Shown here: in pieces, positions 62 through 43,004 of the stretch
Numbering within the stretch: position 1 is the stretch's first letter
Layout: every line of letters starts with the position of its first letter
Source: Pirellulales bacterium
GTDB lineage: Bacteria > Planctomycetota > Planctomycetia > Pirellulales > UBA1268
DNA length: 53,529 nucleotides
Assembly (NCBI GenBank): GCA_044336925.1
Contig: JBIIOM010000001.1
Coordinates: 1-53,529, forward strand
Direction of reading: 5' to 3'
Program-made: the position numbers and the translations under genes
The notes under the pieces: generated by a model
The model's database searches: none
The model's input: the letters and a program-made list of their open reading frames with translations, nothing else
Told to the model about the DNA's origin: nothing

Positions 62-1813
62 TCATCGCCCACCCCCAACCGAGACGTCCGCGAGCGAGCC
101 GGCGGAGACGGTGATCACGCGGTCGCAGTAGGATGTGGTTGAGAGGCGGTGGGCGATCATGATGATCGTGAGGTCGCGGGAGAGACCGGCAAGCGTGTCC
201 ATGAGGGCCTTTTCAGTGGCGTCGTCCAAGGCGCTCGTCGCCTCGTCGAAGACGAGCACGGGCGCCTGCTTGTAGAGCGCCCGCGCAATCCCGATCCGCT
301 GCCGCTGGCCGCCGGAGAGCCGTACGCCCCGCTCGCCCACGGTCGTGGCATAGCCCTTCGGTAGCGACTCGATGAATTCGGCAATCTGGGCCTGAGCGGC
401 CGCGGCCTCGAGACGGCCCTGATCGACCTCCGCCGCCGGGATGCCGAGCGCGATGTTCTCTGCGATCGACGCGTCGGCGAGAAAGATGCTCTGCGGCACA
501 TGCGCGATGTTCGCCTGCCAGGCCTCGGAGTCTACTTCGCGGCCGTCGATCAGGAGCCGGCCACTCGTGGGGGCGAGCAGCCCCATGAGGATGTCGGCGA
601 GCGTGCTTTTGCCGCTGCCCGTCGGCCCGACGAGGGCTACGCGTTCGCCCCTCTTGATTTCGAGCGACACATCGCGGAGCACGAGCGGCAGTTCGGGCTG
701 GTAGCGGAACGAGCAGTCGTCGAGCGCGATCGACTCGGTGAAGGCAGCGGGGGCCGCCCGGGGCCGGTCGGCCTCGGGGGCCGGCTGGTCGAGGAGATCG
801 AGCACGATCTGGAACCCGGCCACGTGGTTTTGCAACAGGGAAAACGACATGTAGGTCTGCTGCAGCGCCGGCAAGAGCCGCTGGGCACCGAGCGCGAGAG
901 CCCCGAGCACGGGCAGCGCCGCCGCGATGCCGCCGGACCGCGTCACGAGCACATAGGCCAACGCCGCCACGCCCGCCATGCCCGCCGCCTCGATCACAAA
1001 CCGCGGAAACCCGCCGAGCAATTCGGCCCGGGCCCGCAGTTGGCGGATCGCCCAGTCGGCGTCTCGATAGCGGGCGAGATAGTAGGGCTGCGAATGGTCG
1101 AGGAGCACGTCGCGGATCGCCCCCAGGCCCTCCTGCACGTTTTGCACGAGGGCCTTGTTGCTCGCCGCCTGCTCGCGGCTGTTGGTGGTGAGCGAGGCCT
1201 TCGTGGCCAGCGTGATCGCCAGATATGCCCCTCCGAAGGCGAGCACCGTGAGAAACGCCACCCACGGGTCGATGAGCACGAGGCCGAGCGCGATCGCGGC
1301 GATCACGGCGACGTTGACGCAGATCAAAAGCAGCGGATTGAGTACGCCGTAGATCAGCCCATCGACGTGCGAAATCACGGCTGTCGTGATCGTGGCCGAG
1401 TTGCGGGCCACATGCACGGCATACGGCTGGTAGAGCGTGCGGCGATAGGCCTCCTGCGAGAGATCGCTGCCGGTGCCGGCGGCGACGCGGCCGGAGAGCC
1501 AGAGGTTCACGAGGCGGATCAGACCCGAGGCGACCGCGGCAACCACGAAGAGCATCGTGACGGGCAGGAGCAACTGACTGGGCTCCGTGAGCCCGCGGGC
1601 CTCCGCGGCTGCCCGCACCCACGGCCGGCTCCAGAGCCGCTCGGGGTCGGCAAGCACCGTGAGAAACGGGACGACCGCGGCGAGGCTCACAATCTCTGCG
1701 AAGCCGCTTGCGAGCATCGAGCCCAATACGGCCACGAGCTGAAACCGCCGCTTGCCCGGAAGATGGGCCCAGAGGCGGCGGAGGAGCGCGGGGAGTGGCG
1801 GATGGTCGGTCAT
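62..1813 (-). CDS. ABC exporter, fused permease/ATPase (MsbA/PglK-like architecture)
   Basis: 583-aa ORF with ATG at 1813. Hydrophobic N-terminal half resembles a six-helix exporter TMD. C-terminal NBD has Walker A GPTGSGKST, ABC signature LSGGQRQR, Walker B LVFDEATSALD and H-loop IAHRL. Confidence 0.9.
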   Translation of the reverse strand: MTDHPPLPALLRRLWAHLPGKRRFQLVAVLGSMLASGFAEIVSLAAVVPFLTVLADPERLWSRPWVRAAAEARGLTEPSQLLLPVTMLFVVAAVASGLIRLVNLWLSGRVAAGTGSDLSQEAYRRTLYQPYAVHVARNSATITTAVISHVDGLIYGVLNPLLLICVNVAVIAAIALGLVLIDPWVAFLTVLAFGGAYLAITLATKASLTTNSREQAASNKALVQNVQEGLGAIRDVLLDHSQPYYLARYRDADWAIRQLRARAELLGGFPRFVIEAAGMAGVAALAYVLVTRSGGIAAALPVLGALALGAQRLLPALQQTYMSFSLLQNHVAGFQIVLDLLDQPAPEADRPRAAPAAFTESIALDDCSFRYQPELPLVLRDVSLEIKRGERVALVGPTGSGKSTLADILMGLLAPTSGRLLIDGREVDSEAWQANIAHVPQSIFLADASIAENIALGIPAAEVDQGRLEAAAAQAQIAEFIESLPKGYATTVGERGVRLSGGQRQRIGIARALYKQAPVLVFDEATSALDDATEKALMDTLAGLSRDLTIIMIAHRLSTTSYCDRVITVSAGSLADVSVGGGR

Positions 1814-1877
1814 TGGGGCGGAAGCGTGGCCGAGGGGCCCGAGGGCACCAGCGAGTTTCCCATCGGCCGGTTACGAA

Positions 1878-3440
1878 TCAATGCAGAGCCTCGAGCCGCT
1901 CGCGCAGGGCCTTGATCTGCGGATGATCGAGGCCGCCTTGAGGCAGGGCCGGAAGACGGGTGATTTCGTCATACAGCCGCCGGGCCGTGGCCGCATCGCC
2001 CGCATCGAGTGCGAGGTTGGCCAAGCGGGTATGGCCATACCACACATACTCGATCGTGCGCGGCACGCGGCGGGCGATATCCGCGAGCGGATGCGGCTCG
2101 AAGCAGGCCGCGCCGCGATAGAGCGCCACGATCTCACCATAGGCCCGTGCCGCCGCCTCTCGATCGCCGACCTCTTCAAGGGCCGTCCCCAGATTCGCCC
2201 AGGCCTTCGTGCTGTGCGGGGCCTTGATGGCCGTGTCGGCCCAGAGCGCGAGCGGCGAGGTGTGAACCGTGTTGCGCTGATAGGTCGCCCCGGCGAGGGC
2301 GAGGGCCGCCGTGCCGAGAATCGCGGTCGAGAGCCGCAGATCGGAGAATGCTTGCACGGTGCCCAGGGCAACGGCAGCCGCCACGCACGCCAGCGAAAGA
2401 TAGATGCGGTGCTCGAACGCCAGGTCGATCGTCGCCGCCACGCTTGACGTCGGAAGGAGCACGAGCCCGAATGCCAGCGGCAAGAAACCGAGCTGCGGAT
2501 CGCGCCGCCAGAGCCATGCCGTTGCTGCCGTGGCCACGGCGACGAGCCCCCAGGCGATCGAGAGCCACACGGGATCATCTTCGACTGGCCAGGAGGGATC
2601 GATGCAGAGCCGGCTCGGCCAGAGAGCCTGGGCGAGATAGTGGCCGATGATCTCGGGCTGCGTGCGGAGGTATTGCCAGGTGCTCACCCGCTGGGCACAG
2701 AGCAGCCCGCCGGCGAGATAGTGGCTGCGATTGAGGAGCACGTAGCCCACTCCAGAGCCAACAGTGGCGACGAGCGCGGCGTAATACCAGCCGCGTCGCG
2801 AAAACACCTCCCGCCACGACGCCGCGAGAAACGCCCGGTCGAAGAGCAGAAACACCGTCAGCGCCACGATGCCCACCTCCTTCGTGGCAATCGAGAGCAG
2901 CACGCAGCCATATGACGCTGCGAGCCACGGCCACGCCCGCCCGCCCGCCGCCGCCCGCCAGAGGCAGTAGAGGCCGGCGAGAAATAAGAGCCCCATCAGC
3001 GACTCAAACCGCTGGTAGAGGTAGGTCACGGAGTGCGTCTGGAGCGGATGCAGGGCCCAGAGCAAGGCGGTGAACAGGCTCGCCGCCGCGGCCCGTGGCG
3101 GCCCCAGGCGGCGCGTCGTCACCCCGCGCACGATCAGAAAGAGCAGGCAGGCGGCCGCGGCATGGATGGCGATGTTGACGAGGTGAAACCCCGGCAGCCA
3201 CATTCCGTGGAGCGTCTTTTGGAGTTCGAACGTGAAGAAGCCGAACGTCCGCGGCCGGGGCAGGAACCAGCCGGCGGGATCGGAGGGTGACAGCGTCCGC
3301 AGGCCCTCGGCGAGCGGGATGCCGTCGAAGAGAAACGGGTATTCGAGGCTGTTGGAATACGCAGCCGCAACCGCCGCGACGATCAGCCCGCACGCGACGG
3401 CCGCGCTGGGCCAGCCCTTGTTGTCACTGACCGCGCTCAT
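1878..3440 (-). CDS. TMTC-like GT-C membrane protein with C-terminal TPR-like tail (paralogue T1, degenerate first-loop motif)
   Basis: I prefer the internal ATG at 3440 (MSAVSDNKGW...) over the ORF-track start at 3557. Shares motifs with five paralogues: GFHLVNIAIHAAA, LHPLQTHSVTYLYQRFES, ATKE, LLPTSSV...FEHRIYLS. The first-loop motif reads FLFDG instead of F-x-DD. Confidence 0.7.
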   Translation of the reverse strand: MSAVSDNKGWPSAAVACGLIVAAVAAAYSNSLEYPFLFDGIPLAEGLRTLSPSDPAGWFLPRPRTFGFFTFELQKTLHGMWLPGFHLVNIAIHAAAACLLFLIVRGVTTRRLGPPRAAAASLFTALLWALHPLQTHSVTYLYQRFESLMGLLFLAGLYCLWRAAAGGRAWPWLAASYGCVLLSIATKEVGIVALTVFLLFDRAFLAASWREVFSRRGWYYAALVATVGSGVGYVLLNRSHYLAGGLLCAQRVSTWQYLRTQPEIIGHYLAQALWPSRLCIDPSWPVEDDPVWLSIAWGLVAVATAATAWLWRRDPQLGFLPLAFGLVLLPTSSVAATIDLAFEHRIYLSLACVAAAVALGTVQAFSDLRLSTAILGTAALALAGATYQRNTVHTSPLALWADTAIKAPHSTKAWANLGTALEEVGDREAAARAYGEIVALYRGAACFEPHPLADIARRVPRTIEYVWYGHTRLANLALDAGDAATARRLYDEITRLPALPQGGLDHPQIKALRERLEALH

Positions 3441-3446
3441 CGGATT

Positions 3447-3457
3447 CTCACAGTGAG
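3447..3457. promoter_or_regulatory. palindrome in a short divergent intergenic region
   Basis: CTCAC-A-GTGAG is a perfect 5-1-5 palindrome. It lies between the divergent T1 (start 3440) and YfhO-like A (start 3491 or 3548) genes. Confidence 0.2.
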
Positions 3458-3547
3458 GGTGCCGGGCATTGCAGACGTCGGGCATCAGGGTTGGAATGGG
3501 TCGGCTGCGGTATCGTACTCGCCCTCCTGCTTCTTCCGCGCGACAGC

Positions 3548-6280
3548 ATGGCTGCATCGTTCATCACCCGCCCATCGTTCTTTCCGATCGTGCTCCTCGC
3601 CACGGTTGCGGTGCTGTTTGCCGGCTCGGTCGGCCCGGGGCTCTTGTTTGCCTTTCGCGACTCGCTCCACTTCTATCCGCCGCTCTACCGGCTCGTGGCC
3701 GACGAGTGGCTCGCCGGCCGGGTGCCGCTTTGGAACCCGCTCGCCAACTGCGGCCAGCCGCTGGCCGGGATGGGGAGCGCAGGCGCGTTTTATCCCCCGC
3801 AGATTCTGCTCGCGATGCTCCTGCCCGACGGCACGTCGCTGAACGTGTATTGCATTCTGCATCTCGCGTTTGCCGCGACCGGGGCGTATTTCCTCGCGCG
3901 GGATCAGGGCGGCTCGCGGCCGGCGGCGACGGTGGCGGGGCTCGCGTATGCGTTTGGCGGGAGTGTGCTCCTGCAGGTCTACAACCCGATCTACGCGGCG
4001 GGCGCCGCGTGGGTCGCGTGGGCCGTCTATGCGGGCCTGCGGCTCTTGCAGGCCAGGGGTGGAACCCGCGACTTCGTGCTCTTGGCCGCGGCACTGGCGA
4101 TGTGCGTCTTCTGCGGCGACCCTCAGGCTGCCTACCATGCCGGGCTCGTGCTCGGACTCTTTTGGCTCATGCTGCCCGGGAGATCGTGGAAGGGTTTTGG
4201 AATGCTCGCCGCCGCGGGTCTGGCGGGCGGGCTCTTGTCACTCGTGCAGGTGGCCCTCGCAGCCGAGTTCACCCGCGACACGCAGCGGTCGATGGATCTC
4301 GCCCCCTACTCGCTCTGGGAGATTCCCGCGTATCTCGCCCACCGCGCGGAGATCGGCGACCGGGCGGCCTGGTACGACATCTTCATCGGTCGGCCCCGGG
4401 CGGCGGCCGGGCATTACGGGGCGATCTATGCATTCGCGCTGCACCCGCTGCGGCTCGTGGAATTTCTCTGGCCCGACGCGCTGGGCACGATCGCCGGGAG
4501 GTGGGCGGCGAATCTCCGCCTCGACAACAGTGAAGTCTGGGCCAACTCGCTCTATTCGGGCATCCTGCCGGTCGTGCTCGCCGCCGGGGCCTGGCTCGTG
4601 CCGGCCGCGGGGTGGCCGACCCGCAGAGCCTGGGGGCTCGCGGCCGTGCTCGCGCTTGTCGCCAGCATGGGCGGGCTGGGCCTCGTGGGGCTCGTGCGAA
4701 ATGCCGCCGCGATCCTCACGGGCGACTTTGGCTCACTCGGCTATGCGCATGGCGACGAAGTGGGCGGCCTCTATTGGGCGATGTCGATCGGTCTGCCCGG
4801 CTATGCGGGATTTCGGTATCCCGTGAAATGGATGACCGTGTTCGCCCTCGCCCTCGGGCAGCTGGCGGCCATGGGATTTGACGGCCTCGGTGACGCCGCC
4901 GTGCGTGCACGCTGCCGCAAGATGGCCGTTGCCGTGGCGGCTGTGCTTGCCGTCTTGGTCGCGGGGCTCGGGATCGCGGCGCTCGCCAACGGGCAGGCGG
5001 ACGTGTTGCCGGCGGGCAGTTTGGAGGCACGGCGGGTCGCCGTCTTTCAGGCGGTGTTTCATGGCGGCGTCCACGCGCTGGCGTTCGCCGCGATCACGGC
5101 CTTGCTGATCGGCGGGCCCCGGTGGGCTTCGCGGCGGGCGGCGTTCGCGATGCAGATCGGGCTGGTACTGATGGTTGCGGCCGACCTGGCCATGGCGGGC
5201 CGACGTGAACTGGTGGTCGAGCCTGTCGCGCGGCTCGTGGCCGGCGGGGACTATCTCGACGAACTGGCGCTCCGCCGGCGGGCGGACATGGCGACCGTGG
5301 CGTCGCGGCCGCGGCTGGCGGTCGTCGATCCGGCCTCGATCCTGATCGACCCGCTCGACATGCCGCGCTATGTCTGGGAAGTCGGGCAGACGCTGATCGG
5401 CCACACGGTTTGGTTCCACGGCCAGGAAAAAATCGGCGAGCGGAGTACGGCGATGTCTCGGGAGCTCGAGTTTCTCTTGTGCCCGCTGGAGCACGAGGGC
5501 AGGAAGATCGTCTCGCGGCGGACCTACGACCTATGCGGCGTCGAATTCTTCATCGTCGGAGCGGGCGAGGCCGAGCTCACGGCCTCGTCCACGCTGCTCC
5601 ATGAGTGGACGGCCGAGCAGCGGCGGGGGGCTTTCGACGGGCCGGTGCCGCTCGGGCCGCCGCTGCCTGCGGTGCCGATCATGAATCTCGGGCCGAACGG
5701 CGGCGAGCCGCTGATGGTGGTGGCCCGCAACGAGTCGGCCCTGCCGCGGGTGCGGGTCGTGCGGCAGGTTGCGACCGTCCCTCCGGCGAGCAAACGGGAT
5801 TGGGCCACATGGATCGACCTGCTCAAGCGGATCGCGTTTCCGAATCGGGAGATTCCCGACCTGTTTCACGCCGCGATCGTCGAGGGCACGGCTCTGAATG
5901 GCCCGCCCTTTCCGCAGGGCGGCCGCGCAGCCGTCCGCGACGCCTGCCGGATGGTGGTCGATGAGCCGCAGCGAGTCGTCATCGAGGCTGATCTCGCCAC
6001 GCCGGGGCTGCTCGTGGTCGCCGATAGTTGGCACCCCGACTGGACTGTCAGCGTGTCGAACGACGGCGGGCCGCCCCGGGCTGCGCCGATCCGGCGGGCC
6101 AACCGGATTCATCGCGGTGTCGGGCTGCCGGCAGGCCGGCATGTGCTCGAGTTTCGGTATCGCTCGAAGACGTTCGTCTGGACGGCGCCCTTGACGCTGG
6201 CGGCATGGGCGGCCGCCGCGGTCGCCGTGGCGGCGTCGTTTCGGAGTGGCCTGACCGCTGCGAGGCATGGGGCGACATGA
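3548..6280 (+). CDS. YfhO-like polytopic membrane protein (GT-C-type), copy A
   Basis: Start is uncertain: TTG at 3491 or ATG at 3548. Many TM helices. N-terminal RDSLHFYPPLY...GRVPLWNP...GQPL motif. C-terminal LVVADSWHPDWTVSV...ANRIHRGVGLPAGRHVLEFRYRS resembles the YfhO-family C-terminal signature, followed by a final TM helix. Confidence 0.7.
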   Translation: MAASFITRPSFFPIVLLATVAVLFAGSVGPGLLFAFRDSLHFYPPLYRLVADEWLAGRVPLWNPLANCGQPLAGMGSAGAFYPPQILLAMLLPDGTSLNVYCILHLAFAATGAYFLARDQGGSRPAATVAGLAYAFGGSVLLQVYNPIYAAGAAWVAWAVYAGLRLLQARGGTRDFVLLAAALAMCVFCGDPQAAYHAGLVLGLFWLMLPGRSWKGFGMLAAAGLAGGLLSLVQVALAAEFTRDTQRSMDLAPYSLWEIPAYLAHRAEIGDRAAWYDIFIGRPRAAAGHYGAIYAFALHPLRLVEFLWPDALGTIAGRWAANLRLDNSEVWANSLYSGILPVVLAAGAWLVPAAGWPTRRAWGLAAVLALVASMGGLGLVGLVRNAAAILTGDFGSLGYAHGDEVGGLYWAMSIGLPGYAGFRYPVKWMTVFALALGQLAAMGFDGLGDAAVRARCRKMAVAVAAVLAVLVAGLGIAALANGQADVLPAGSLEARRVAVFQAVFHGGVHALAFAAITALLIGGPRWASRRAAFAMQIGLVLMVAADLAMAGRRELVVEPVARLVAGGDYLDELALRRRADMATVASRPRLAVVDPASILIDPLDMPRYVWEVGQTLIGHTVWFHGQEKIGERSTAMSRELEFLLCPLEHEGRKIVSRRTYDLCGVEFFIVGAGEAELTASSTLLHEWTAEQRRGAFDGPVPLGPPLPAVPIMNLGPNGGEPLMVVARNESALPRVRVVRQVATVPPASKRDWATWIDLLKRIAFPNREIPDLFHAAIVEGTALNGPPFPQGGRAAVRDACRMVVDEPQRVVIEADLATPGLLVVADSWHPDWTVSVSNDGGPPRAAPIRRANRIHRGVGLPAGRHVLEFRYRSKTFVWTAPLTLAAWAAAAVAVAASFRSGLTAARHGAT

Positions 6281-10553: not shown

Positions 10554-10566
10554 AGGAGCCGGTTTG

Positions 10567-12504: not shown

Positions 12505-12537
12505 CCGTGAAGCAGTGGCCGGCGGCCGGAAAGTCGA

Positions 12538-12570
12538 GGTTTCTCGGCGGAAAACCCCCTTTTTGTTTTT
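12538..12570 (+). terminator. possible weak intrinsic terminator after the plus-strand GT-C operon
   Basis: A 5-bp stem (GGTTT...AAACC) is followed by CCCTTTTTGTTTTT. This T-rich run stands out in otherwise high-GC DNA and begins about 55 nt after the stop at 12504. Confidence 0.3.
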
Positions 12571-12692
12571 CACACAAATCTCATGGCAGGCTGATTGCAT
12601 CCTCATGCTTCGCGCGTAGCATTCGGCCCAGCAAGCGGATTGGTGGATCGACCGCCGGGCGACTTGCAACATGTGCATGAAAAGGATTTGCA

Positions 12693-13928: not shown

Positions 13929-13961
13929 GTGGAGCCCAACGTCAGCACGTCTGACACGAGA

Positions 13962-14001
13962 GCCGCGGCCGCCTTCGGGCGGCCGCGGTTTCTTTTTTTT
14001 T
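13962..14001 (+). terminator. Rho-independent terminator
   Basis: GCCGCGGCCGCC-TTCG-GGCGGCCGCGG forms an 11-bp perfect GC stem with a tetraloop. It is followed directly by TTTCTTTTTTTTT, about 34 nt after the stop at 13928. Confidence 0.85.
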
Positions 14002-14111
14002 GATGAGGAGCGGGGGACGTCAGTGAATGCGATCCTGAACGTGGTATCTTTCTCATTCTGATGGGCTATTGGCCGGTTTTCCCGTTCAACGTTTGAGAGG
14101 GCAGGCGACTG

Positions 14112-15569: not shown

Positions 15570-15597
15570 AATTGGAGTCTCCTGGAGGACGCCCCAC

Positions 15598-19139: not shown

Positions 19140-19144
19140 ATCCC

Positions 19145-19981: not shown

Positions 19982-20132
19982 GCTCCATCGGCTTCGGCGG
20001 ACGCGGCGCTCGAATCGCTGCCGCTTGGGATGACGCTCGAATACCTGCAGAGCCTGCTGTCGGCCGATATCGACCGGGAGTTCCTGGCAACCGTTCTCAG
20101 CCGCTACGCCGCCGAACTGGGCGGCTCCAACG

Positions 20133-20519: not shown

Positions 20520-20755
20520 CAGCGGGCGGTCTCGGGCCAGTCTTCGACCGCCACCGGAGCGCACGGATCGCCTTGAAACCGCGCGCCCCTGAGATGCGGG
20601 GCCTGCTCCAATGGATCATGGCTATCGCGGTGCGGCACGATATCTACCACGGGGAGGTTGTTCCGACAGATCGTCACGGGCTTGCCCGTGCGTTCAACCT
20701 CGGCAATGAGCCGCGAGAGGTGGGCCTTGGCCTCGTAGGTGCTGACGGCTTTCAT
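20519..20755 (-). CDS. type II antitoxin, Phd/YefM family
   Basis: 78 aa, MKAVSTYEAKAHLSRLIAEVERTGKPVTICRNNLPVVDIVP. Lies immediately upstream of the PIN toxin and overlaps it. Confidence 0.85.
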   Translation of the reverse strand: MKAVSTYEAKAHLSRLIAEVERTGKPVTICRNNLPVVDIVPHRDSHDPLEQAPHLRGARFQGDPCAPVAVEDWPETAR

Positions 20756-20771
20756 GTCTGAATAGTAATGA

Positions 20772-22792: not shown

Positions 22793-22869
22793 CTGATCCT
22801 CATCGATCCATGCCATGTTTTTCCCGTTCAAGCCATTACTATAAGGTCTCACCTTCCCGGCCTCAAACC

Positions 22870-23568: not shown

Positions 23569-23598
23569 GGCGTCCGGGGCGTGCTACGCGCACACCAA

Positions 23599-28273: not shown

Positions 28274-28288
28274 CTCGATTATTGTGGC

Positions 28289-30250: not shown

Positions 30251-32526
30251 CGCTCCGCCTCCGCGGCCGCGAGCCGTGTCCGGAGCCAGTCGCAGCGGTG
30301 TGCGGCGGCCGCCGCGGCGGTGTCGTCGCCGAGAAGCTGACAGGTTGCTGAAAGACCATCCCACATCCGTGGATCACCCGAATAAAACCTCGTTGCCGAT
30401 TCGAACACGGCGCGGGCAGCGGCGGCGCGGCCTTCGTCGAGATGCCGGCGGCCCTGCCGAAGAAGCTCGTCGGGCGTGCCGTAGCCCTCGCGCTCGAACC
30501 AGCAAAGGTCGTCGAGTTCGGCCGGCGGGCCGTGAAGGGCCGCGTCGATCGCGGCGACATCGAGCCGGTAGACGAGGATCGACCCGCCGATCGAGGCGTC
30601 GGGTGTTCGCTGCCGAAGGAAGGCTTCGAGGCGGGCTGCCTGCAGGATGTTGAAGGCGGCCACGGCGAGATCGGGGAGCGAAGGGGGCTGCCCGATGTCG
30701 CCAAGGCCGAGGTCGTCGCGGTCGGCCGTGAAGGCTCGGAGCAGTTGTTTCGCGGAGCCGTCGTCGGCCTCCTTGCCCCCGGCGTCGAGCCACTGGCTCG
30801 CGCGGCGGTAGTGGTCTTCGAACAGGCGGCACCAGCGGCCGCGTGGCCGGTCGGAGATGCCTTGGAGCGCCGTCGCGCTCACGCAATAGATGCCGGGTTC
30901 GAGGACCTGCTTTACGCCCCAGCCCCGCGGATAGCCGAGGTGTTCAACGGCTCGCAGTTCCGAGGAGACAGGGGCGGCGCCCGAATAGTTGACGTAGATT
31001 CGGTCGGCGGGGGCCGAGTGCTGTTCGAGCCAGCGGCCGAGGCGGCGGAGATCCTGGCCCCAATCGAGGCTCGAATCCACGAGCCACTGGTGCGCCTCTC
31101 CGCGGGGCACGAGTTGGTTGAAGTAGGCGAGCGAGGCCGGATAGCGGCTGACGACGTCGGCCGCATGCAGGACCACGAGGCCGGAGATGAGGAACTTGCG
31201 CCACGGCACGGTCGCAACCTGCCAGCAGCCACCGGCGAGGATCATGAGCGGCGGATACGAGGGGAGGAGGTGCCGCTCACCGATATTCAGGTGACTGGTC
31301 AGAAACGTCGCCCAGAGAAGACCGAGCCACACCAACAGCGGCAGCACGTTCCAGGCCTCGTCATCGAGGGCGAGGCGGTGGGCGATTCGCCCGATCACGA
31401 GGGCCACCGCCCGGGCCACCCCGAAGCCGGCGAGCACAAGGGCGGGCAGTGTGTTCTTGACCGCGAGGCAGAGTGGAAAAAACCACCACCATCCAAACAC
31501 TGAATGCTCGCCGATCGCAAACGCTTCGCGATGGCCACTGCGAGCGGCGACGTAGCTCAGTCCCCACAGCCACGACTCGGGCAACAGCCGCCAGACCGCA
31601 ACCCCTTCGCAGACCATGCCGACACCGCCCGCATGGCCCACGCACTCGGCAAGTGTGGGAAACCAGAAAAACCCTGCTGGTTCCGAACCGGGCACGAACG
31701 CCCGGTAGCGGAAGCCGCACGAGGCCCAGATCACGAACACGGCCGCCAGGAGCGGCCCGACGAGGCTCGCGGCCATCACCGCCGCCTTCCGCCCGCGATC
31801 GACGAACATTGTCGAAAAGTCCGCCATAGAGAGCGGCAGCGGCCGCCGTGACGCTGCCATGATGATCACAAACAGCCCGGCCAGCGGCGCAAGCAGCACG
31901 CACGAATGCTTCGCGATCGCCGCGAGACCCACCGCGACGGAGGCCGCGATCAGTGAACCGACGGTCACCCGATTGACCAGATTCCAGAGCAACCATGCGC
32001 CGAGCGTGAAAAAGAGGCTGCCGCAGGCGTCGCTCGTGGCCAGCGGGCCGTGGGCCACGAGGGCCGGCCAGAAGGCTGCGAGCCCGAGCGACACAAGCCC
32101 GCCACCGTGGCCAAAGAGTGAACGGGCCCACAGATAGACGACGAGGCAGAGCGCCGCGGACCATATCGTCGCCATCCCCCGTGCGGCGGCAAGGATGACC
32201 GCCGGATCGTGGCCGGACTCATAGAGGAGCGAGCGTCCCAGGCGAAAGCTGTCGCTCTGCCGCCATGCCACCTCATCCTCGGGCAGCCGATATCCCAGCG
32301 CGACAAGCGGCACCGCGCACCAGCGCTGCGGCAGATTGCCGTTTTCAGGCTGGAGCCGGTAGTCGTCGGTCGTCCAGTACGAGAGGCCGGATGCGATGTG
32401 CAACACCTCGTCGAACGTGGCCGAGGCGTCGAGTGTCGCCGTGAAGGCGAGCGCAGAGTGGGCGATGAGCAGGCCGGCCACGGCGATGCCCTGGAGCCAC
32501 GGGCTTGGATGGCCAGACGCCGTCAT
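30247..32526 (-). CDS. GT39/PMT_2-like GT-C glycosyltransferase with large C-terminal domain, copy B
   Basis: ATG at 32526 overlaps the upstream TGA as ATGA. First-loop motif TFDEVLHIASG...YRLQPENGNLPQRW. Also IAKHS and the periplasmic motif VDSSLDWGQDL. C-terminal TPR-like end. Confidence 0.75.
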   Translation of the reverse strand: MTASGHPSPWLQGIAVAGLLIAHSALAFTATLDASATFDEVLHIASGLSYWTTDDYRLQPENGNLPQRWCAVPLVALGYRLPEDEVAWRQSDSFRLGRSLLYESGHDPAVILAAARGMATIWSAALCLVVYLWARSLFGHGGGLVSLGLAAFWPALVAHGPLATSDACGSLFFTLGAWLLWNLVNRVTVGSLIAASVAVGLAAIAKHSCVLLAPLAGLFVIIMAASRRPLPLSMADFSTMFVDRGRKAAVMAASLVGPLLAAVFVIWASCGFRYRAFVPGSEPAGFFWFPTLAECVGHAGGVGMVCEGVAVWRLLPESWLWGLSYVAARSGHREAFAIGEHSVFGWWWFFPLCLAVKNTLPALVLAGFGVARAVALVIGRIAHRLALDDEAWNVLPLLVWLGLLWATFLTSHLNIGERHLLPSYPPLMILAGGCWQVATVPWRKFLISGLVVLHAADVVSRYPASLAYFNQLVPRGEAHQWLVDSSLDWGQDLRRLGRWLEQHSAPADRIYVNYSGAAPVSSELRAVEHLGYPRGWGVKQVLEPGIYCVSATALQGISDRPRGRWCRLFEDHYRRASQWLDAGGKEADDGSAKQLLRAFTADRDDLGLGDIGQPPSLPDLAVAAFNILQAARLEAFLRQRTPDASIGGSILVYRLDVAAIDAALHGPPAELDDLCWFEREGYGTPDELLRQGRRHLDEGRAAAARAVFESATRFYSGDPRMWDGLSATCQLLGDDTAAAAAAHRCDWLRTRLAAAEAER

Positions 32527-35060
32527 CGCGCTGCCTCCTCTGGCCCGCGCTCGAGCAACTTTTGCAGCTCCGGCGGCACGTCGCTGCCGAGCCGCTGCGC
32601 GGTGCGGATGTCCGCGATCGCTGCCGCGACGTTGCCAAGCCGCAGGCTGAGAACGCCCCGATTGAAGTAGGCCGGCGCGAAGTCGGCGCCGCGGGCGATG
32701 GCGGCGGCATAGGCGGCGATCGCCTCCTCCGAACGATCGATCGTGGCGAGAACGTTGCCGCGATGGTAGAGGGGCTTTGGGTCGTGCGGGGCGAGGCGGG
32801 CGGCCTTGTCGTGGGCGGCAAGGGCATCGCCGAGCCGCTCACGGGCCGCGTAGACGAGGCCGAGCCGGTCCCACGCGACGGCGCTCGTGGGGTCGAGCCG
32901 CGTGGCCTGCTCGAGGGTTTCCTGCGATTCCACGAGCGACCCCTGATCAAACAGCCGATCGCCGCGCCGCACGAGCGCCGCGGCATCGCCCCCCGAGTCG
33001 CGCTCCATCCACGAGATCGGCTCGAGCTCCGCCGGCGGGCCGGCCAGCGCCTGCGCAAGATCGGCCGCGGAGAGCCGAAACACGAGGATCGAGCCGCCCA
33101 CAGTGGCATCGGGCTCGCGCTTCCGGAGGAACGCCCGCAGCCGACCGGCCTGCAGCAGATTGAAGGCATGCACCGCGGCCTCGCGAACCGCGGCATCATC
33201 CGCCGCCTCGTGGGGCTGCACCGAAGGAAGATCGCCGCGGGAATCATTGACGATCGCGCCGGCAGCGGAGGCATCTTCAGTGGCGGCGTCGATGAAGCGA
33301 CGGGCCCGCTGGTAGGTCGCCTCGAAGGCAGTGCACCAGGGCCCGAGCGGTTCGGCGTAGACGCCCTGCAGGAGCGTCGCGCTCGTGCAGTACACACCGG
33401 GCTGCAGTCGGCGCGGCATGCCTGCCGCCGGAGCGAGGTCGATGCTCTCGGCCTGCGGTAGCACGCGATCGACGAGATCACTGCCAAAGTAGCAGGCATA
33501 CACCGGCTCGCCGGGCTCGGCATGGCGATCGAGCCAGGCCCGCAGGCGAAGGAGGTCCTGGCCCCAGTCGAGGTTCGAGTCCACCAGCCAGCGGTATTCG
33601 CGACCGCGAGGCACGAACTGGTTGAAGTAGGCAAGCGACGAGGGCCAGCGACTCGCGACGTCGATCGCATGGAAGGCGAGCAGAATGACGACGGCACGCC
33701 AGACCCAGGCGGATGAGGCGGCGGCGAGTGTTCCGCCCGCCAGGACCATGAGTGCCGGGTACGACGGCAGCATGTGGCGTTCGCCGATGTTCAGGTGGCT
33801 CGTGAGGAACGTGGGCCAGAAGACGACGAGGATGCCGAGCGGGGCGAGGCTCGCGTACGTCGCCCGCCCGAACGGCAGGCGGCGGCCGATGCTCTCGAGC
33901 AGGCCGCGGCAGGCGACGCCGATTCCCCACAGCGAAAGGATGAGCGAGGGCAGCGTGTTTTTGATCGCGAAGCAGAGTGGAAAATACCACCACCAGCCGT
34001 CGATCGAGTAGCTGCCGATGGCGAAGGCATAGCGGGTGCGGACGGTAGCCCCCACGTAGCTGAGCCCATAGAGCCAGCCCTCCGGAAGAAGCCGCCATGT
34101 CGCGAGCACGCCACAAATCCTGCCGATCGTGCCGGCGTGCTCGCTGCACGACTCGAGCGTTGTGTAGCGGCGAAACTCCTGTGGCCCGCAGTTGGGCCCC
34201 GCGACTTCGTACCGAAACCCGCACGACGCCCAAATGAAGAAGATGGCCCCGGCGAGCGGGACGACGAGTGCGGCGGCCGCGAGGGCGGTCCGCTGCCCGC
34301 GGCCGCGGACGACCGTCTTCCACGGGCCGAGATCGACGACGAGCGGCCGGCCGAGGGCGGCGATCACGGCGAGATACACAATCGCCAGCGGCACGAGCAT
34401 CACGCTCGAATGCTTGGCGATCGGGGCAAGGCCGAGGGCGAAGAATGCGGCGGCGAGCGTGCCAGGCGTGATCCGCTGAAACAGTTCCCAGAGGGACCAG
34501 GCGCCAAGCGTGAAGAAGAGTGCCCCGCAGGCGTCGCTCGTGGCCAGAGGCCCGTGGGCGACGAGGGCGGGCCAGAAGGCGGCGAGAGTGAGCGAGACGA
34601 GGCCGCCGGCAGTGCCAAAGATCGACCGCGACCAGAGGAAGACGACGAGGCACAAGGCCGTGGACCAGACCGTGGCCATCGCGCGGGAGGCCGCGAGCAT
34701 CGCCTGCGGATCGTTGCCGCAGGTGTAGAGGTATTGCCGGCCGAGGAGGATCGCCTCGCTCTCCCGCCAGACGGGCTGGTCGAGTGTCGGGAAGTTCAGG
34801 TTCATGAAGAGCAGCGGGATCCCACACCACCGCTGCGGCAGGTTGCCGTTTTCGGGCTGAAGTCGATAGTCGTCGAGCGACCAGTAGGCGACGCCGGCCA
34901 CCATGTGGAGCGGCTCGTCGAACGTGGTCGCCGCACCGAGTGTGGCGGTGTAGGCGAGCACGTAGTGGCCCGCGAGGAGGGCGATGACGGCGGCCGCGAT
35001 CCACAGATGCCGAGGCGGGCCCGGGGCTCGCTCACCCTCGCGTGCGGTTCGCGCTCCCAT
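32523..35060 (-). CDS. GT39/PMT_2-like GT-C glycosyltransferase with C-terminal TPR domain, copy A
   Basis: ATG at 35060. Motifs: TFDEPLHMVAG...YRLQPENGNLPQRW, IAKHS, VDSNLDWGQDL. Clear C-terminal TPRs (AVAWDRLGLVYAARERLGDALAAHDKA...). Confidence 0.75.
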   Translation of the reverse strand: MGARTAREGERAPGPPRHLWIAAAVIALLAGHYVLAYTATLGAATTFDEPLHMVAGVAYWSLDDYRLQPENGNLPQRWCGIPLLFMNLNFPTLDQPVWRESEAILLGRQYLYTCGNDPQAMLAASRAMATVWSTALCLVVFLWSRSIFGTAGGLVSLTLAAFWPALVAHGPLATSDACGALFFTLGAWSLWELFQRITPGTLAAAFFALGLAPIAKHSSVMLVPLAIVYLAVIAALGRPLVVDLGPWKTVVRGRGQRTALAAAALVVPLAGAIFFIWASCGFRYEVAGPNCGPQEFRRYTTLESCSEHAGTIGRICGVLATWRLLPEGWLYGLSYVGATVRTRYAFAIGSYSIDGWWWYFPLCFAIKNTLPSLILSLWGIGVACRGLLESIGRRLPFGRATYASLAPLGILVVFWPTFLTSHLNIGERHMLPSYPALMVLAGGTLAAASSAWVWRAVVILLAFHAIDVASRWPSSLAYFNQFVPRGREYRWLVDSNLDWGQDLLRLRAWLDRHAEPGEPVYACYFGSDLVDRVLPQAESIDLAPAAGMPRRLQPGVYCTSATLLQGVYAEPLGPWCTAFEATYQRARRFIDAATEDASAAGAIVNDSRGDLPSVQPHEAADDAAVREAAVHAFNLLQAGRLRAFLRKREPDATVGGSILVFRLSAADLAQALAGPPAELEPISWMERDSGGDAAALVRRGDRLFDQGSLVESQETLEQATRLDPTSAVAWDRLGLVYAARERLGDALAAHDKAARLAPHDPKPLYHRGNVLATIDRSEEAIAAYAAAIARGADFAPAYFNRGVLSLRLGNVAAAIADIRTAQRLGSDVPPELQKLLERGPEEAAR

Positions 35061-35063
35061 CGA

Positions 35064-36077
35064 TCACTCCGTGCTCAGCGGAGTGCGTCCCGCGACGGCG
35101 GCGTGATCCTCGGGCAGCACGTAGTCCCGCCAGTCGCGGTGGGGCAGGAAATTGGCGGCACTGCGGTTGCCGAGGACGAACACGGCCAGAAGCAGGCTCA
35201 CGATGCCGAGCAGCAGGCCGCCGATCACGAGCATCCCCGCGGTGAACGTCGCCCAGCCGGGGATCGCGGCGGTCGTGAACAGTCGGATCGTGAGCACGGC
35301 GCCGAGCGCGGCCACGACCGCCGCCATCAGCCCCGCCACGATGACGAACAGCCGTGACACGATGACGTCGCTCCACACCGAGAGCGTGCAGATGCCGTGC
35401 ATCACGAGCGCCGGCAGATTCATCTTCGACTCCCCGGCGAGCCGGCGGCCGCGGGCGATCGGCACCTGCACGACCGGAATCCGGGCGTGGAACACGCCAG
35501 CGGCATAGTGATTCCAGATCTCGGATACGCCCACCACCCGCTCGAGCACCGGCCGCGGCAGGACGCTGAAGTTGCCCACCTTCACGTCGCGGCCCACGAA
35601 GATCTTGTGCAGCAGGCGAAACGTCCGGTAGCCGAGCATGAATCCCGCGCCGTCGTGTCGCTTGAGCCGCTCGGCGAACACCGCTGCGTGGGGCGAGCCC
35701 TCGACCGCCACCGCGAGCAACTCCGGCAGCGACGACGGGCAGTCTTCGCCGTCGCCATCCATCACCACGGCGTAGTCGGCGTCGGTCTCGGCGGCGATGA
35801 ACGACAGGCCGATCGCGATCGCCCGCTGGTGGCCGAGGTTGCGGCGGAGCCGGAGGACTTCGACGGCCGGGATATGCGGCGTCGGGCCGGGCAGGGCCGC
35901 ACACTCCTCGTGCCGGGAGCCGTCGTCCACGAACACCACGGCGAAGTCATAGGGGAGCGAAGCGGCGACGGCTTCGAGTTTGTCGAGCAGGAGCGCGGCG
36001 CTCTTCGCGTCGTTGAAGACGGGAATGCAGGCGACAACGGAGGGACGTTCGTGTGGCATGTGGTTCATGCTGTTCAT
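35064..36077 (-). CDS. GT2 glycosyltransferase with two C-terminal TM helices (GtrB/ArnC-type polyprenol-phosphate glycosyltransferase architecture)
   Basis: ATG at 36077. Motifs: ACIPVFND, VFVDDGS, VMDGDGED. The C-terminal hydrophobic segments VIVSRLFVIVAGLMAAVVAAL and FTAGMLVIGGLLLGIVSLLLAVFVL match GtrB/ArnC topology. Confidence 0.8.
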   Translation of the reverse strand: MNSMNHMPHERPSVVACIPVFNDAKSAALLLDKLEAVAASLPYDFAVVFVDDGSRHEECAALPGPTPHIPAVEVLRLRRNLGHQRAIAIGLSFIAAETDADYAVVMDGDGEDCPSSLPELLAVAVEGSPHAAVFAERLKRHDGAGFMLGYRTFRLLHKIFVGRDVKVGNFSVLPRPVLERVVGVSEIWNHYAAGVFHARIPVVQVPIARGRRLAGESKMNLPALVMHGICTLSVWSDVIVSRLFVIVAGLMAAVVAALGAVLTIRLFTTAAIPGWATFTAGMLVIGGLLLGIVSLLLAVFVLGNRSAANFLPHRDWRDYVLPEDHAAVAGRTPLSTE

Positions 36078-36087
36078 GACTGCCGAT

Positions 36088-38154
36088 TCATGGTGAGGCG
36101 GCGAGGCCGACCAAGGCCAGCATGGCGGCCGGCGGCTTCCCGCCGAGCCGCACGAACGCCTCGATGTCGGCCCGCGCCTCGGCCGTGCGGCCGGCGCGGA
36201 TCAGGAGAACGGCTCGATTGTAATGGGCATCACGGAAGGTTGGATCGGCCGCGAGCGCCGCTGTAAAGTCCGCGATGGCTGCCGCGGGCTGGCCCATTTC
36301 CGCGTGCAGCCCGCCACGGTTATAGACCGCCTCGGCGTCTTTGGGGTCGCAGGCAACGGCCCGATCGAAGGCCTCCAGGGCGGCGGCCCGATCGCCCCGG
36401 TCCTGCCGGGCGATGCCAAGGTGATCCCACCCCTTGGCGTATTTCGGATCGACCTCGACGGATCGGGCGAACGACCGCTCGGCATCGTCACGCCGACCGA
36501 GATCAAGCAGCACGTTGCCGCGGTTGAGCCAGGCGGGGGCGATCTGGTCGTCGAGGGCGAGGGCCCGGTCGAGATCGGCGAGGGCCTCTGGCGACCGGCC
36601 GAGTTTCCAGAGCACGTAGCCGCGGTCGGCATGCGTGGCTGCGTCGTCGGGCGTGAATTCCAGCACGGCGTCGATCGCGGCGAGGGCCTCGGGATAACGG
36701 CCCTGGGACTTTGCGAGCGAACCGACGTTGACGCTATGCACCTTTGGATAGCGGCCTGTCTCCGCCACCCGGGCCAAGAGCCGCTCCGCCTCCGCGAGCG
36801 ACGCGGGATCCTTCTTCGCGATCAGCTGGGCCGCGAGGTTGATCATCGCCCGCTCGTTCCGCGGCTCAGCCGCAAGGGCCTTCCGCCACAGAATCTCGGG
36901 CGTGACGAACTCACGATTGCGGGCCGCCGTCGAGAGGCCGAGTGCGAGGGCGACAGCGGTGGCGGCCAGGCCGCAGAACCGCGGCGAGAGCGCGAGCCGC
37001 TCCCGGGCGACGACCCAGGCCGCCGCCACGGCGGGCACGATCAGGCAGGCGCTCGCCAGATACGCCCGATGCTCCGCGATCGTCTGCGTCTTGACCGGGA
37101 CCACGGACGACGTTGGCCCCAAAAGCACGAAGAAGAGAAAGGGGCCGAGAAAGGCGATCGGGAACTTCGCGTAGCCGTAGACGACGCCGCCAAACACCGC
37201 TGCCGTGAGCAGGAGCCAGCCCCCCGACTCGGCCAGCCCCGACGAGAGAAAATCGCCGTAGTCGAAGACGAGCCCCTGCGGCCACACGATCCGCGCGAAG
37301 TAGAGCCAGATCGCCTTCGCCTGCGTGAGCAGGTAAAGCCAGGGAGAGGCCGAGTCGAGCCCGGCCGACGAGCCGCGGCCGCCAAGCGCCGTGAGCATGA
37401 GAGCGACACTCGGCCACGAGGCTGCCGCCGCGAGGTGCCACGGCCAATGCCGAAGCGTGCCCCGCCAGGATCCGGCGATGAGCGCTCGATCGACGAGCAG
37501 CGTGACCAGCGGGATCGCCACGCTCGTCTCCTTCGCGGTGCCTGCGAGGGCGGAGAGCAGGGCGACGAGGGGCAGGGCCCATGTCTTGCGGCCGGCGTCG
37601 GCCGCGAGGATCCCCCGCACGCAGACGAGCAACGCCGCGAGGGTCATGAACGCCCCGAGCGATTCGGCCCTCTGGATGACGTAGGTCACCGCAGCGGTGC
37701 CGAGCGGATGCACCGCCCACAGAACCACCGCGGCGAACGCGATCTCCCCGGCCCGGTCGCGGACGGCTGCCGGCACCGCGGGACGCGCGAGCAGCTCGCG
37801 AGTGAGCGCGAGAAGCAGCAGGGCGTTGCCGCAGTTAATCAGAATGTTCACCACGCGGAACCCGATTGGCGCGGTTCCCGTGACCGCACGATTGACCGCG
37901 AGCGAGACATTGAGAAGCGGCCGGCCGTCGATCGTCCTCCCCTCGCCGTGCTCGTAGACGAGGACGGGCCAGAGCGGCCAGAGCGAGCGAATCGAGCGAT
38001 TGGCCGTGACACTCGAGGCATCGTCCATGATGAACGGCGCCCTGAGGCCGCTCGCGTAGGCCAGCCAGACCGCCGCGACGAGCGTGAGAGCGGCCAGAAG
38101 GCCGCTCTGAAGCCCAAAAAAGTTCGGCGGTTTTTCCAGCGCGTTTTCGGCCAT
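36088..38154 (-). CDS. TMTC-like GT-C membrane protein with long C-terminal TPR domain (paralogue T6)
   Basis: ATG at 38154. Motifs: APFIMDDASSVTAN, GFRVVNILINCGN, VHPLGTAAVTYVIQRAES, TAKE, LGPTSSVVPVKTQTIAEHRAYLA. About 7 C-terminal TPRs. Confidence 0.8.
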   Translation of the reverse strand: MAENALEKPPNFFGLQSGLLAALTLVAAVWLAYASGLRAPFIMDDASSVTANRSIRSLWPLWPVLVYEHGEGRTIDGRPLLNVSLAVNRAVTGTAPIGFRVVNILINCGNALLLLALTRELLARPAVPAAVRDRAGEIAFAAVVLWAVHPLGTAAVTYVIQRAESLGAFMTLAALLVCVRGILAADAGRKTWALPLVALLSALAGTAKETSVAIPLVTLLVDRALIAGSWRGTLRHWPWHLAAAASWPSVALMLTALGGRGSSAGLDSASPWLYLLTQAKAIWLYFARIVWPQGLVFDYGDFLSSGLAESGGWLLLTAAVFGGVVYGYAKFPIAFLGPFLFFVLLGPTSSVVPVKTQTIAEHRAYLASACLIVPAVAAAWVVARERLALSPRFCGLAATAVALALGLSTAARNREFVTPEILWRKALAAEPRNERAMINLAAQLIAKKDPASLAEAERLLARVAETGRYPKVHSVNVGSLAKSQGRYPEALAAIDAVLEFTPDDAATHADRGYVLWKLGRSPEALADLDRALALDDQIAPAWLNRGNVLLDLGRRDDAERSFARSVEVDPKYAKGWDHLGIARQDRGDRAAALEAFDRAVACDPKDAEAVYNRGGLHAEMGQPAAAIADFTAALAADPTFRDAHYNRAVLLIRAGRTAEARADIEAFVRLGGKPPAAMLALVGLAASP

Positions 38155-42993: not shown

Positions 42994-43004
42994 TGCCCCG
43001 CCCA

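Follow-up and report, generated by a model that had tools for sequence, protein, structure and literature searches.

Fourteen GT-C-type membrane proteins in one conserved planctomycete locus: a candidate extracytoplasmic glycosylation system of unusual scale

What does a bacterium do with fourteen glycosyltransferase genes of the GT-C type gathered in 38 kb? Outside the cytoplasm, no glycosyltransferases other than those of the GT-C type are known to work, and in bacteria GT-C enzymes usually occur singly or a few at a time. The question is raised by a 53,529-nucleotide stretch of a Pirellulales bacterium (assembly GCA_044336925.1, contig JBIIOM010000001.1, positions 1 to 53,529), a complete metagenomic contig present at NCBI and JGI and referred to here as the window, whose interval 62-38154 holds 23 genes: 21 ordinary genes and one two-gene toxin-antitoxin pair. 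Fourteen of the 23 encode large multi-pass membrane proteins that occupy 27,264 of 38,093 bp (72%), and a Pfam scan of the remaining 15 kb, with 8-9 genes, found none of this large polytopic type. An earlier note, made from the letters of this DNA, had arrived at the same 14 membrane proteins, although its total of 24 genes was one too many.

The locus is real and unusual, and the class of mechanism to which it points is a known one. We read it as a greatly expanded, multi-component extracytoplasmic glycosylation locus whose enzymes bearing tetratricopeptide repeats (TPRs) most likely O-glycosylate proteins, an interpretation to which we give a probability of roughly 0.55. Because the GC content is high, genes were called from third-position GC (GC3) together with open reading frame (ORF) structure, and starts were refined against orthologues. 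The glycosyltransferase genes are the following, with the evidence in brackets.

g2, 1878-3557, minus strand: predicted GT-C of family A (TMTC-like), weak C-terminal TPR array (BLASTP to g18, 1.9e-48, and g10, 9.6e-39)
g3, 3491-6280, plus strand: predicted GT-C of family B (YfhO-like), about 910-929 amino acids, likely start 3548 (homologue scan)
g4, 6277-9060, plus strand: predicted GT-C of family B (YfhO-like) (53% identical to g3)
g5, 9060-10553, plus strand: predicted singleton GT-C of the PMT_2/ArnT-PMT clan, with WLDEIWT after the first transmembrane segment (homologue scan)
g6, 10567-12504, plus strand: predicted GT-C of family A, C-terminal TPR array, start uncertain (Pfam, BLASTP, alignment)
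g10, 17679-19139, plus strand: predicted GT-C of family A without a TPR array (BLASTP, alignment, homologue search)
g13, 20880-22634, minus strand: predicted GT-C of family A, C-terminal TPR array (Pfam, BLASTP, alignment)
g14, 22870-23568, plus strand: soluble family 2 glycosyltransferase (GT2) of the polyprenyl-phosphate-sugar synthase type (Pfam Glycos_transf_2, 2.7e-34)
g15, 23599-25179, minus strand: GT-C of family C, a family without a Pfam model, by homology (51% identical to g16)
g16, 25176-26771, minus strand: GT-C of family C (AlphaFold2 and Foldseek)
g17, 26768-28273, minus strand: singleton GT-C of a small family without a Pfam model (AlphaFold2 and Foldseek)
g18, 28289-30250, minus strand: predicted GT-C of family A, C-terminal TPR array (Pfam, BLASTP, alignment)
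g19, 30247-32526, minus strand: GT-C of family D (Pfam PMT_2, 1.3e-8, 35.6 bits)
g20, 32523-35060, minus strand: GT-C of family D, C-terminal TPR array (Pfam PMT_2, 4.1e-7, 30.8 bits; TPR families)
g21, 35064-36077, minus strand: GtrB/ArnC-like GT2 with C-terminal transmembrane helices (Pfam Glycos_transf_2, 3e-12)
g22, 36088-38154, minus strand: predicted GT-C of family A with the largest TPR array (Pfam, BLASTP, alignment)

Evidence for a GT-C fold in the fourteen membrane proteins

All-against-all BLASTP sorts the 14 proteins into families A (g2, g6, g10, g13, g18, g22), B (g3, g4), C (g15, g16) and D (g19, g20) and the singletons g5 and g17, with 53% identity within the g3/g4 pair and 51% within each of g15/g16 and g19/g20. 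Together with scans of homologues, this grouping agrees with the sub-classes that the earlier note had proposed, namely six TMTC-like, two YfhO-like, two PMT_2 and one ArnT/PMT-like protein. Direct Pfam and NCBIfam scans, even at E = 10, recognise only g19 and g20 among the 14, both above the PMT_2 gathering cut-off of 26.1 bits, and the remaining classification was therefore tested by other routes.

Each of the 14 proteins has 5-10 or more hydrophobic segments, and the first-loop acidic motifs from which a GT-C identity had initially been proposed are conserved in every family: an acidic residue directly after the first transmembrane segment (TM1) is kept in 94-100% of homologues per family. 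It is Asp in 126/126 sequences of family A, Asp in 45/46 of family B (within an RD motif), Asp or Glu in 56/57 of family C and Asp in 45/48 of the g17 family, and part of a DE pair in 24/24 of the g5 family; in g19 and g20 the motif reads FDE.

Structure comparison covered g16 and g17, which belong to families of 57 homologues with no Pfam domain (family C) and 58 homologues with no relevant Pfam domain (g17). The AlphaFold2 model of g16 (pLDDT 94.7, pTM 0.93) retrieved only GT-C structures among its top 19 Foldseek matches in the PDB (AftA, STT3, PglB, DPY19, ALG9, AftD; probability 0.99-1.0, TM-score up to 0.53), and that of g17 (pLDDT 91.7, pTM 0.92) retrieved GT-C structures at all of its top 29 positions (probability 0.99-1.0), the best being ArnT (5ezm, TM-score 0.58). 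With these two models, the tops of whose match lists hold GT-C structures only, the assignment now also takes in the three proteins left unclassified at the outset, g15 by extension from g16 at 51% identity.

Family A is the largest group. A profile search returned 699 relatives, many of them named 'protein O-mannosyl-transferase' by JGI, homologues of g10 included; PF13231 is carried by 6 of the 120 relatives listed among the 699 found. When 15 diverse members (the window's six paralogues and nine homologues) were scanned over their transmembrane part only, 4 matched PMT_2 (best 7.4e-7) and 2 matched TMTC_DUF1736, these only weakly (E = 0.044), while Pfam scans gave no TMTC_DUF1736 match in any of the six window proteins. 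Human TMTC1-4 are marked by the motifs DD, HP(L/I)xT, KE and E(H)RxY (PMC7801869), and family A carries their counterparts: DD after TM1, HP(L/I)xT in TM3, KE in loop 3 and E-R-x-Y before TM10. Across 126 sequences the first Asp is present in 126, the second in 118, the Lys in 126, the Glu in 116 and the Tyr in 126.

The alignment-averaged hydropathy of family A has 11 peaks, which match the 11-helix topology of TMTC proteins and would, by that analogy, place the TPR arrays outside the cytoplasm, probably in the periplasm. Within the family such arrays occur in g6, g13, g18 and g22, weakly in g2 and not in g10. Counting g20 of family D, clear arrays are carried by six of the 14 proteins (g6, g13, g18, g20, g22 and, weakly, g2) and not by most of them, as had been claimed. 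Family A thus resembles eukaryotic TMTC1-4 (PMC7801869) in its approximately 11 transmembrane helices, C-terminal TPR array and shared motifs, but differs in that the six window proteins miss TMTC_DUF1736, g10 has no TPR array, and the donor would be a bacterial polyprenyl-phosphate sugar rather than dolichol-phosphate-mannose.

For family B, a full HMMER scan found 19,971 homologues. Pfam YfhO is matched by 39 of the 46 alignment members scanned, g3 and g4 included (best 2e-18; 24-53% identical to g3), whereas g3 and g4 themselves give no YfhO match even at E = 10, so that their YfhO membership stands by transitive homology only. Enzymes of the YfhO family take part in lipoteichoic acid glycosylation in B. 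subtilis and Listeria (PMC5836110) and in the streptococcal GtrB/PgtC2 system (PMC12041528). The g3/g4 family resembles them in its YfhO matches and in its pairing with GtrB-type synthases, but g3 and g4, besides missing the Pfam model, are about 920 amino acids long with a large C-terminal extracytoplasmic part, and their host is a didermic planctomycete without teichoic acids.

The singleton g5, which has no direct Pfam match, has relatives encoded in 80 metagenome loci. Among the 24 alignment members scanned, g5 included, 9 match PMT_2 (best 1.3e-9), 1 matches PMT and 1 is TMEM260-like, and the WLDEIWT motif is invariant throughout the family.

Profile-profile comparison (hhalign, larger profiles) linked family C to g5 at 81%, g17 to g5 at 78%, and family A to both g5 and g17 at 38-44%; family B was linked to none of the others, and small profiles gave no links at all. 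The links are taken as moderate, supporting evidence only. When families A, B, C, D and g5 were used as profile queries against the PDB sequences, nothing was retrieved, or only TPR proteins where the TPR part was kept. Homologues of g17 were searched for with g17 alone, as a concatenated g15 and g17 query returned family C matches only.

Altogether, evidence for the GT-C fold is direct for g19 and g20 (Pfam) and for g16 and g17 (structure), extends to g15 as described, and for the other nine genes is transitive but consistent. The assignment came through every attempt at refutation, and no test placed any of the 14 outside the fold.

Probable donor synthases and conservation of the cluster

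The two GT2 proteins, one soluble and one with C-terminal transmembrane helices, are of the polyprenol-phosphate-sugar synthase type, as the earlier note had proposed, to judge from their nearest relatives in the PDB and NCBIfam. The 232-residue g14 (from its likely start) has no transmembrane helix and is closest in the PDB to ArnC (7.4e-20) and a Pyrococcus dolichol-phosphate-mannose synthase (2.4e-19), with NCBIfam matches to AglJ (4.8e-33), ArnC, PgfS and PpgS, all under the equivalog cut-offs. In g21, three hydrophobic segments lie at residues 229-290, and the PDB matches to ArnC (2.1e-10) and GtrB sll0501 (1.7e-9) align over residues 13-290, through the transmembrane helices; in NCBIfam it matches PgfS (6e-12), and members of its 90% cluster are named 'polyisoprenyl-phosphate glycosyltransferase'. 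The nearest characterised relatives of both proteins are accordingly polyprenyl-phosphate glycosyltransferases, g14 being of the soluble DPM1-like type, and with scores under the equivalog cut-offs the sugars that they handle cannot be named. The GT-C fold and the adjacent GtrB/ArnC-like genes together suggest that the 14 membrane enzymes would use polyprenyl-phosphate-linked donors.

Several pathway classes had been reported missing from the locus, and Pfam and NCBIfam scans of all window proteins likewise found no nucleotide-sugar enzymes, Wzx/Wzy/Wzz, WecA/WbaP-type initiating transferase or STT3 oligosaccharyltransferase. No WWD or W[WYF]DxG motif, as in the WWDxG signature, occurs in any of the 14 GT-C proteins, and PglB and STT3 turn up as fold-level matches only, in the Foldseek searches with g16 and g17.

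The glycosyltransferase genes are accompanied by a smaller set of other genes, some of which recur with them in relatives.

g1, 62-1813, minus strand: ATP-binding cassette (ABC) exporter half-transporter, MsbA/PglK/HepA-like (Pfam ABC_membrane and ABC_tran)
g7, 12693-13928, plus strand: prepilin-type pilin-like protein with an N-methylation motif (Pfam N_methyl, 4.7e-8; NCBIfam pilin/pseudopilin N-terminal matches)
g8, 14112-15569, plus strand: TPR_12 protein with an N-terminal membrane anchor at residues 29-47 (Pfam TPR_12, 8e-53)
g9, 15598-17667, plus strand: P1B-type heavy-metal P-type ATPase (Pfam E1-E2_ATPase and Hydrolase)
g11, 19145-19981, plus strand: cytoplasmic S-adenosylmethionine (SAM)-dependent methyltransferase (Pfam Methyltransf_23, 2e-17)
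toxin-antitoxin pair, 20133-20755, minus strand: Phd/YefM antitoxin at 20519-20755 (PhdYeFM_antitox, 2.4e-8) and PIN toxin at 20133-20564 (PIN, 3.8e-16)
g25 and g26, 45390-48202, minus strand: CvpA-like membrane protein (Colicin_V, 1.6e-6) and T2SSE/PilB-type ATPase (T2SSE, 2.8e-120)

The window was compared with metagenome loci and loci from metagenome-assembled genomes (MAGs), referred to here by L numbers. Its proteins and its nearest relatives by synteny trace to freshwater metagenomes and to MAGs carrying the label Planctomycetia or Pirellulales, a placement with which the DUF1559 and prepilin-type proteins of the window are consistent. Within this clade of freshwater Pirellulales-like MAGs the locus is a conserved but fast-changing cluster, of which the window holds the largest version among the relatives compared. 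Its core consists of a family A gene, a GT2, a family D gene, a second family A gene and g17, together with the pilin-like protein, the TPR protein, the P1B ATPase, a family A gene and the methyltransferase. The corresponding blocks g22-g21-g20-(g19)-g18-g17-(g16-g15) and g7-g8-g9-g10-g11 recur in L002, L003-L005 and L163-L165 at 42-97% amino acid identity, and the order g22-g21-g20-g18-g17 is held down to approximately 50% identity. In the window, the eight genes g22-g21-g20-g19-g18-g17-g16-g15 are packed into one unit, in which neighbours overlap by 4 bp or lie no more than 15 bp apart.

A close relative, L002 (81-87% nucleotide identity, matching window positions 87-19962 and 20911 onward), carries a g1 copy at the same place (90% identical) and a single family B gene, orthologous to g4 (79% at the amino acid level), g3 being absent. 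At L002:2964-5295 an IS66-family element (DDE_Tnp_IS66, TnpB_IS66 and a small ORF) stands in place of g2, so that mobile elements are remodelling the cluster, and the position of the toxin-antitoxin pair is taken by a third GT2 (346 amino acids) and a 209-amino-acid methyltransferase. L003-L005 keep g21-g20-g19-g18-g17-g16-g15 at 60-93% amino acid identity, with both paralogues of families C and D retained, and in L005 the g21-g15 block is followed directly by an inverted g11-g10-g9-g8-g7. A compact version in L163/L164 reads g28-g26-g25-g22-g21-g20-g18-g17, inverted g11-g10-g9-g8-g7, then g13, without g19, family C, g14, g23 and g24, and L165 has g7-g8-g9-g10 facing g18-g20-g21-g22-g25-g26. 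Several GT-C genes beside a GT2 also occur on the distant metagenome contigs L007, L085, L086, L089 and L090, and no comparable cluster surrounds the more distant family A homologue on the 1-Mb contig L001.

Among the accessory genes, g7 lies next to g8/g9 in L002, L005, L007, L087, L090 and L163-L165, the position of g8 between g7 and g9 is conserved, and g11 follows g10 in relatives as well. The most conserved gene of the cluster is g9 (89-97% amino acid identity where the GT-C genes have 42-85%), which is always near g7, usually with g8 between. It scores 566 bits against a cut-off of 346 for NCBIfam ATPase-IB_hvy, has CPS rather than the usual CPC at its transmembrane metal site, and lacks an N-terminal HMA domain; its possible roles are to provide the GT-C active sites with metal or to act as a housekeeping anchor gene. 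The P1B ATPase of L165 is split into two ORFs, apparently by a frameshift.

Outside the clade, family C occurs in many phyla, with members in the cultured relatives Anatilimnocola aggregata ETAA8, Caulifigura coniformis Pan44 and Thalassoglobus neptunius KOR42, and is mostly solitary; an ArnC/GtrB-like GT2 lies within 5 kb in 10 of 49 loci, which supports a dependence of family C on a polyprenyl-phosphate-sugar donor. In 6 of the 49 (L014, L027, L058, L063, L073, L079), from Anaerolineales, Gemmatimonadaceae, Verrucomicrobiia, Isosphaeraceae and Pirellulaceae MAGs, a GtrB-like GT2 and a SAM-type methyltransferase form a module with the family C gene, approximately 2-3 kb upstream of it.

With a GC content of 64-73% across the whole window and no compositional break, the term 'island' that the earlier note had applied to 62-38154 is unsupported in the sense of foreign DNA, and horizontal acquisition of the interval was rejected on composition. 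Synteny, which that note had suggested testing across Planctomycetota genomes, is conserved within the clade.

Proposed function and its alternatives

Three-component extracytoplasmic glycosylation is an established scheme (PMC11127046, PMC8035078, PMC12041528), and systems composed of a synthase, a flippase and a GT-C are widespread, with examples in GtrA/GtrB/Gtr* O-antigen glucosylation of Shigella and Salmonella and in the Citrobacter pentofuranose system (PMC11127046). In streptococci, GtrB and a YfhO-family GT-C glucosylate Ser/Thr-rich protein regions (PMC12041528). The logic of the window locus, presented in the earlier note as a candidate novel system, follows this scheme; what is unusual is its scale and mix of families. 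As in three-component systems, a GtrB-like GT2 (g21, which aligns with GtrB/ArnC through its transmembrane helices) would make the polyprenyl-phosphate sugar and a GT-C would transfer it in the periplasm. Unlike those systems, which have one GT-C each, the window has 14 from six families and no GtrA, SMR or MATE flippase, and no O-antigen locus is linked to it.

We propose that g14 and g21 would each charge polyprenyl phosphate at the cytoplasmic face with a single sugar from a housekeeping nucleotide sugar, and that the lipid-linked sugars would then move to the periplasmic leaflet, perhaps by means of g1. This MsbA/PglK-like exporter, a candidate flippase or exporter by its NCBIfam relatives (MsbA 3.8e-81, HepA 3e-73, PglK 4e-73, all under equivalog cut-offs), is put forward for the step because no GtrA, SMR or MATE flippase is encoded. 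In the periplasm the 14 GT-C enzymes, each with the conserved first-loop acidic residue, would use the lipid-linked donors. Those of TMTC-like and PMT_2 type with periplasmic TPR arrays would most likely O-glycosylate envelope or secreted proteins, while the YfhO-like, family C, g17 and g5 enzymes would extend those glycans or modify other envelope acceptors.

What favours protein acceptors, for about half of the enzymes, is the TMTC/PMT_2 architecture combined with TPR arrays. With g7 conserved and a PilB-type ATPase nearby, pilin-like proteins become a concrete acceptor candidate, by analogy with TfpW, the GT-C responsible for arabinosylation of group IV type IV pilins in Pseudomonas (bioRxiv 10.1101/2020.04.19.049825). 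As with TfpW, which is encoded beside its pilin substrate, the prepilin-type g7 (17% Ser+Thr) lies in the cluster, flanked in relatives by a PilB/GspE-type ATPase, but g7 is a planctomycete-type pilin-like protein, and its candidacy as target follows from synteny only.

Several observations weigh against this interpretation. The organism is an uncultured MAG. TPR arrays also occur in polysaccharide export proteins and are no proof of a protein acceptor, and only six of the 14 GT-C proteins carry clear ones. Parts of the catalytic motifs are lost in g2, whose first-loop motif FLFDG lacks the second Asp, and in g6, the most divergent family A paralogue (77% identical to its L002 orthologue), with AK-T in place of AKE. 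Pfam finds no GtrA/GtcA, small multidrug resistance (SMR; ArnE/F-type), multidrug and toxin extrusion (MATE) or Wzx flippase, the gaps hold no unassigned small membrane ORF, and the only transporter candidate for lipid-linked sugars, g1, is a generic ABC exporter. That 14 transferases stand beside two donor synthases could just as well indicate a glycan with many linkages. Elsewhere, the homologues of family C and g5 mostly occur alone and can evidently work outside a cluster, and the variable gene content of close relatives fits a loose collection of enzymes as well as a fixed pathway.

The main rival, which we regard as possible though clearly less likely than protein glycosylation, is the periplasmic assembly of a glycopolymer in the manner of mycobacteria. 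Mycobacterial lipomannan, lipoarabinomannan and arabinogalactan are built by PimE, MptA-C, EmbA-C and AftA-D from decaprenyl-phosphate-arabinose and polyprenyl-phosphate-mannose, with dispersed genes and defined acceptors. On this model, each GT-C family would add one linkage type from polyprenyl-phosphate monosaccharides to a lipid- or wall-anchored glycan, and the TPR arrays would scaffold a periplasm-spanning complex. The presence of six structurally distinct GT-C families with only two donor synthases fits it, as do the glycan-elongating enzymes (AftA, AftD, EmbB, PimE and ALG mannosyltransferases) near the top of the structural match lists for family C and g17, the resemblance of g1 to HepA and PglK, exporters of glycans or lipid-linked glycans, and two nucleotide-sugar epimerase/dehydratase genes in the L165 cluster; YfhO enzymes, moreover, act on teichoic acid polymers (PMC5836110 and PMC8035078). 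Pfam scans found, however, no priming transferase, polymerase, ligase or outer-membrane export component in the locus, six of its enzymes are built like TMTC proteins, a group in which the characterised members have protein substrates (PMC7801869), and a pilin-like protein is a conserved cluster member. The mycobacterial set, although it likewise comprises many GT-Cs acting on lipid-phosphate monosaccharides, shows no detectable sequence similarity to the window proteins, its genes are more scattered, and the present ones are accompanied by no DPPR synthase or DprE genes.

A more ambitious reading, which we hold as tentatively as that rival, is a single dedicated diderm machine in which a complex glycan would be built wholly in the periplasm from polyprenyl-phosphate monosaccharides, on pilin-like fibre proteins or as a new envelope polymer, by the six GT-C families acting in sequence with divalent metal supplied by the P1B ATPase. 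If true, it would be a planctomycete counterpart of glycosylation in the eukaryotic endoplasmic reticulum lumen or of mycobacterial arabinomannan assembly.

It is improbable, to a greater degree than either of these, that the genes share no pathway at all and mark a hot spot enriched in GT-C paralogues through duplication and insertion, with separate acceptors (proteins, lipopolysaccharide (LPS), peptidoglycan, lipids) and shared pools of polyprenyl-phosphate sugars. The differences between close relatives (IS66 for g2, g3 absent, family C and g19 absent in L163/L164, a toxin-antitoxin insertion), the age of the paralogue pairs (51-53% identity) and the solitary family C and g5 homologues in other genomes would suit such a history, but the eight genes of the operon are closely packed with translational coupling, the g22-g21-g20-g18-g17 order persists in relatives down to approximately 50% identity, L003-L005 retain both members of families C and D, and GT-C genes fill 72% of the 38 kb against none in the neighbouring 15 kb.

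Finally, a known lipid A or LPS-core modification cluster, adding an amino sugar or hexose in the manner of ArnC/ArnT, is very unlikely, for although both GT2s have ArnC as their closest relative of solved structure and g17 matches ArnT best by structure, homologues of ArnA, ArnB, ArnD and ArnE/F were not found in the window, the NCBIfam ArnC scores of 81 and 46 bits lie far under the equivalog cut-off of 529, and for an Arn-type system a single GT-C, rather than 14, is what is needed.

The locus corresponds to no described cluster for lipid A, LPS or teichoic acid, and our literature searches found no description of such a locus or of any planctomycete GT-C cluster. What is new is the density of 14 GT-C genes within 38 kb, the joint occurrence of six families, of which two lack Pfam or solved representatives, and the conserved company of a pilin-like protein, a P1B ATPase and a methyltransferase. 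A conserved, operon-like locus of this kind suggests that the Planctomycetota, whose surface chemistry is poorly known, possess a layer of envelope glycosylation that is unexplored and probably elaborate. Its TMTC-like enzymes could serve as bacterial models of the human TMTC O-mannosyltransferases; two GT-C families without a Pfam model are defined, one of which occurs across many phyla, often with a GtrB-like synthase and a methyltransferase linked to it; and testable candidates can be named for acceptor (the pilin-like g7), flippase (the ABC exporter g1) and metal supply (the P1B ATPase g9).

Flanking genes and minor observations

The Phd/YefM-PIN pair fills the 898-bp gap between g11 and g13 and is an insertion that lies outside the glycosylation system. 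An ORF at 20104-20619 (minus strand) in the same gap was discarded as spurious (GC3 0.51), and a long ORF at 25176-28292 (minus strand) resolves into two genes read in different frames. In the window, neither Rfam nor tRNA scans gave a match.

The epimerase/dehydratase genes of L165 mentioned above are NAD-dependent, nucleotide-sugar modifying types at L165:2415-4729 and 8306-9987, and are absent from the window. L004 and L005, approximately 70% identical and syntenic, are labelled 'Planctomicrobium piriforme' and 'Candidatus Kuenenia stuttgartiensis', and L003 is labelled Pirellulales; these labels are inconsistent and probably wrong.

Downstream of g22, the region 38287-45099 contains g23, a protein of 1568 amino acids with a signal-peptide-like N-terminus and 13 TPR_12 stretches, and g24, with 642 amino acids and no family. 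Both stand between g22 and g25 in the window only, being absent at the same junction in L163-L165, where the order g26-g25-g22-g21-g20 brings the CvpA-like protein and the PilB/GspE-type ATPase directly beside g22; whether g25 and g26 are members of the glycosylation system is uncertain. The ATPase g26 (46379-48202, minus strand) has its T2SSE domain at residues 227-604, preceded by a 226-residue extension with three hydrophobic segments and no Pfam match; the usual T2SSE_N is missing. It is adjoined by g27 (48334-49659, plus strand), a second prepilin-type protein with N_methyl and DUF1559/SBP_bac_10 domains, which shares 48% identity with g7 over the N-terminal pilin segment.

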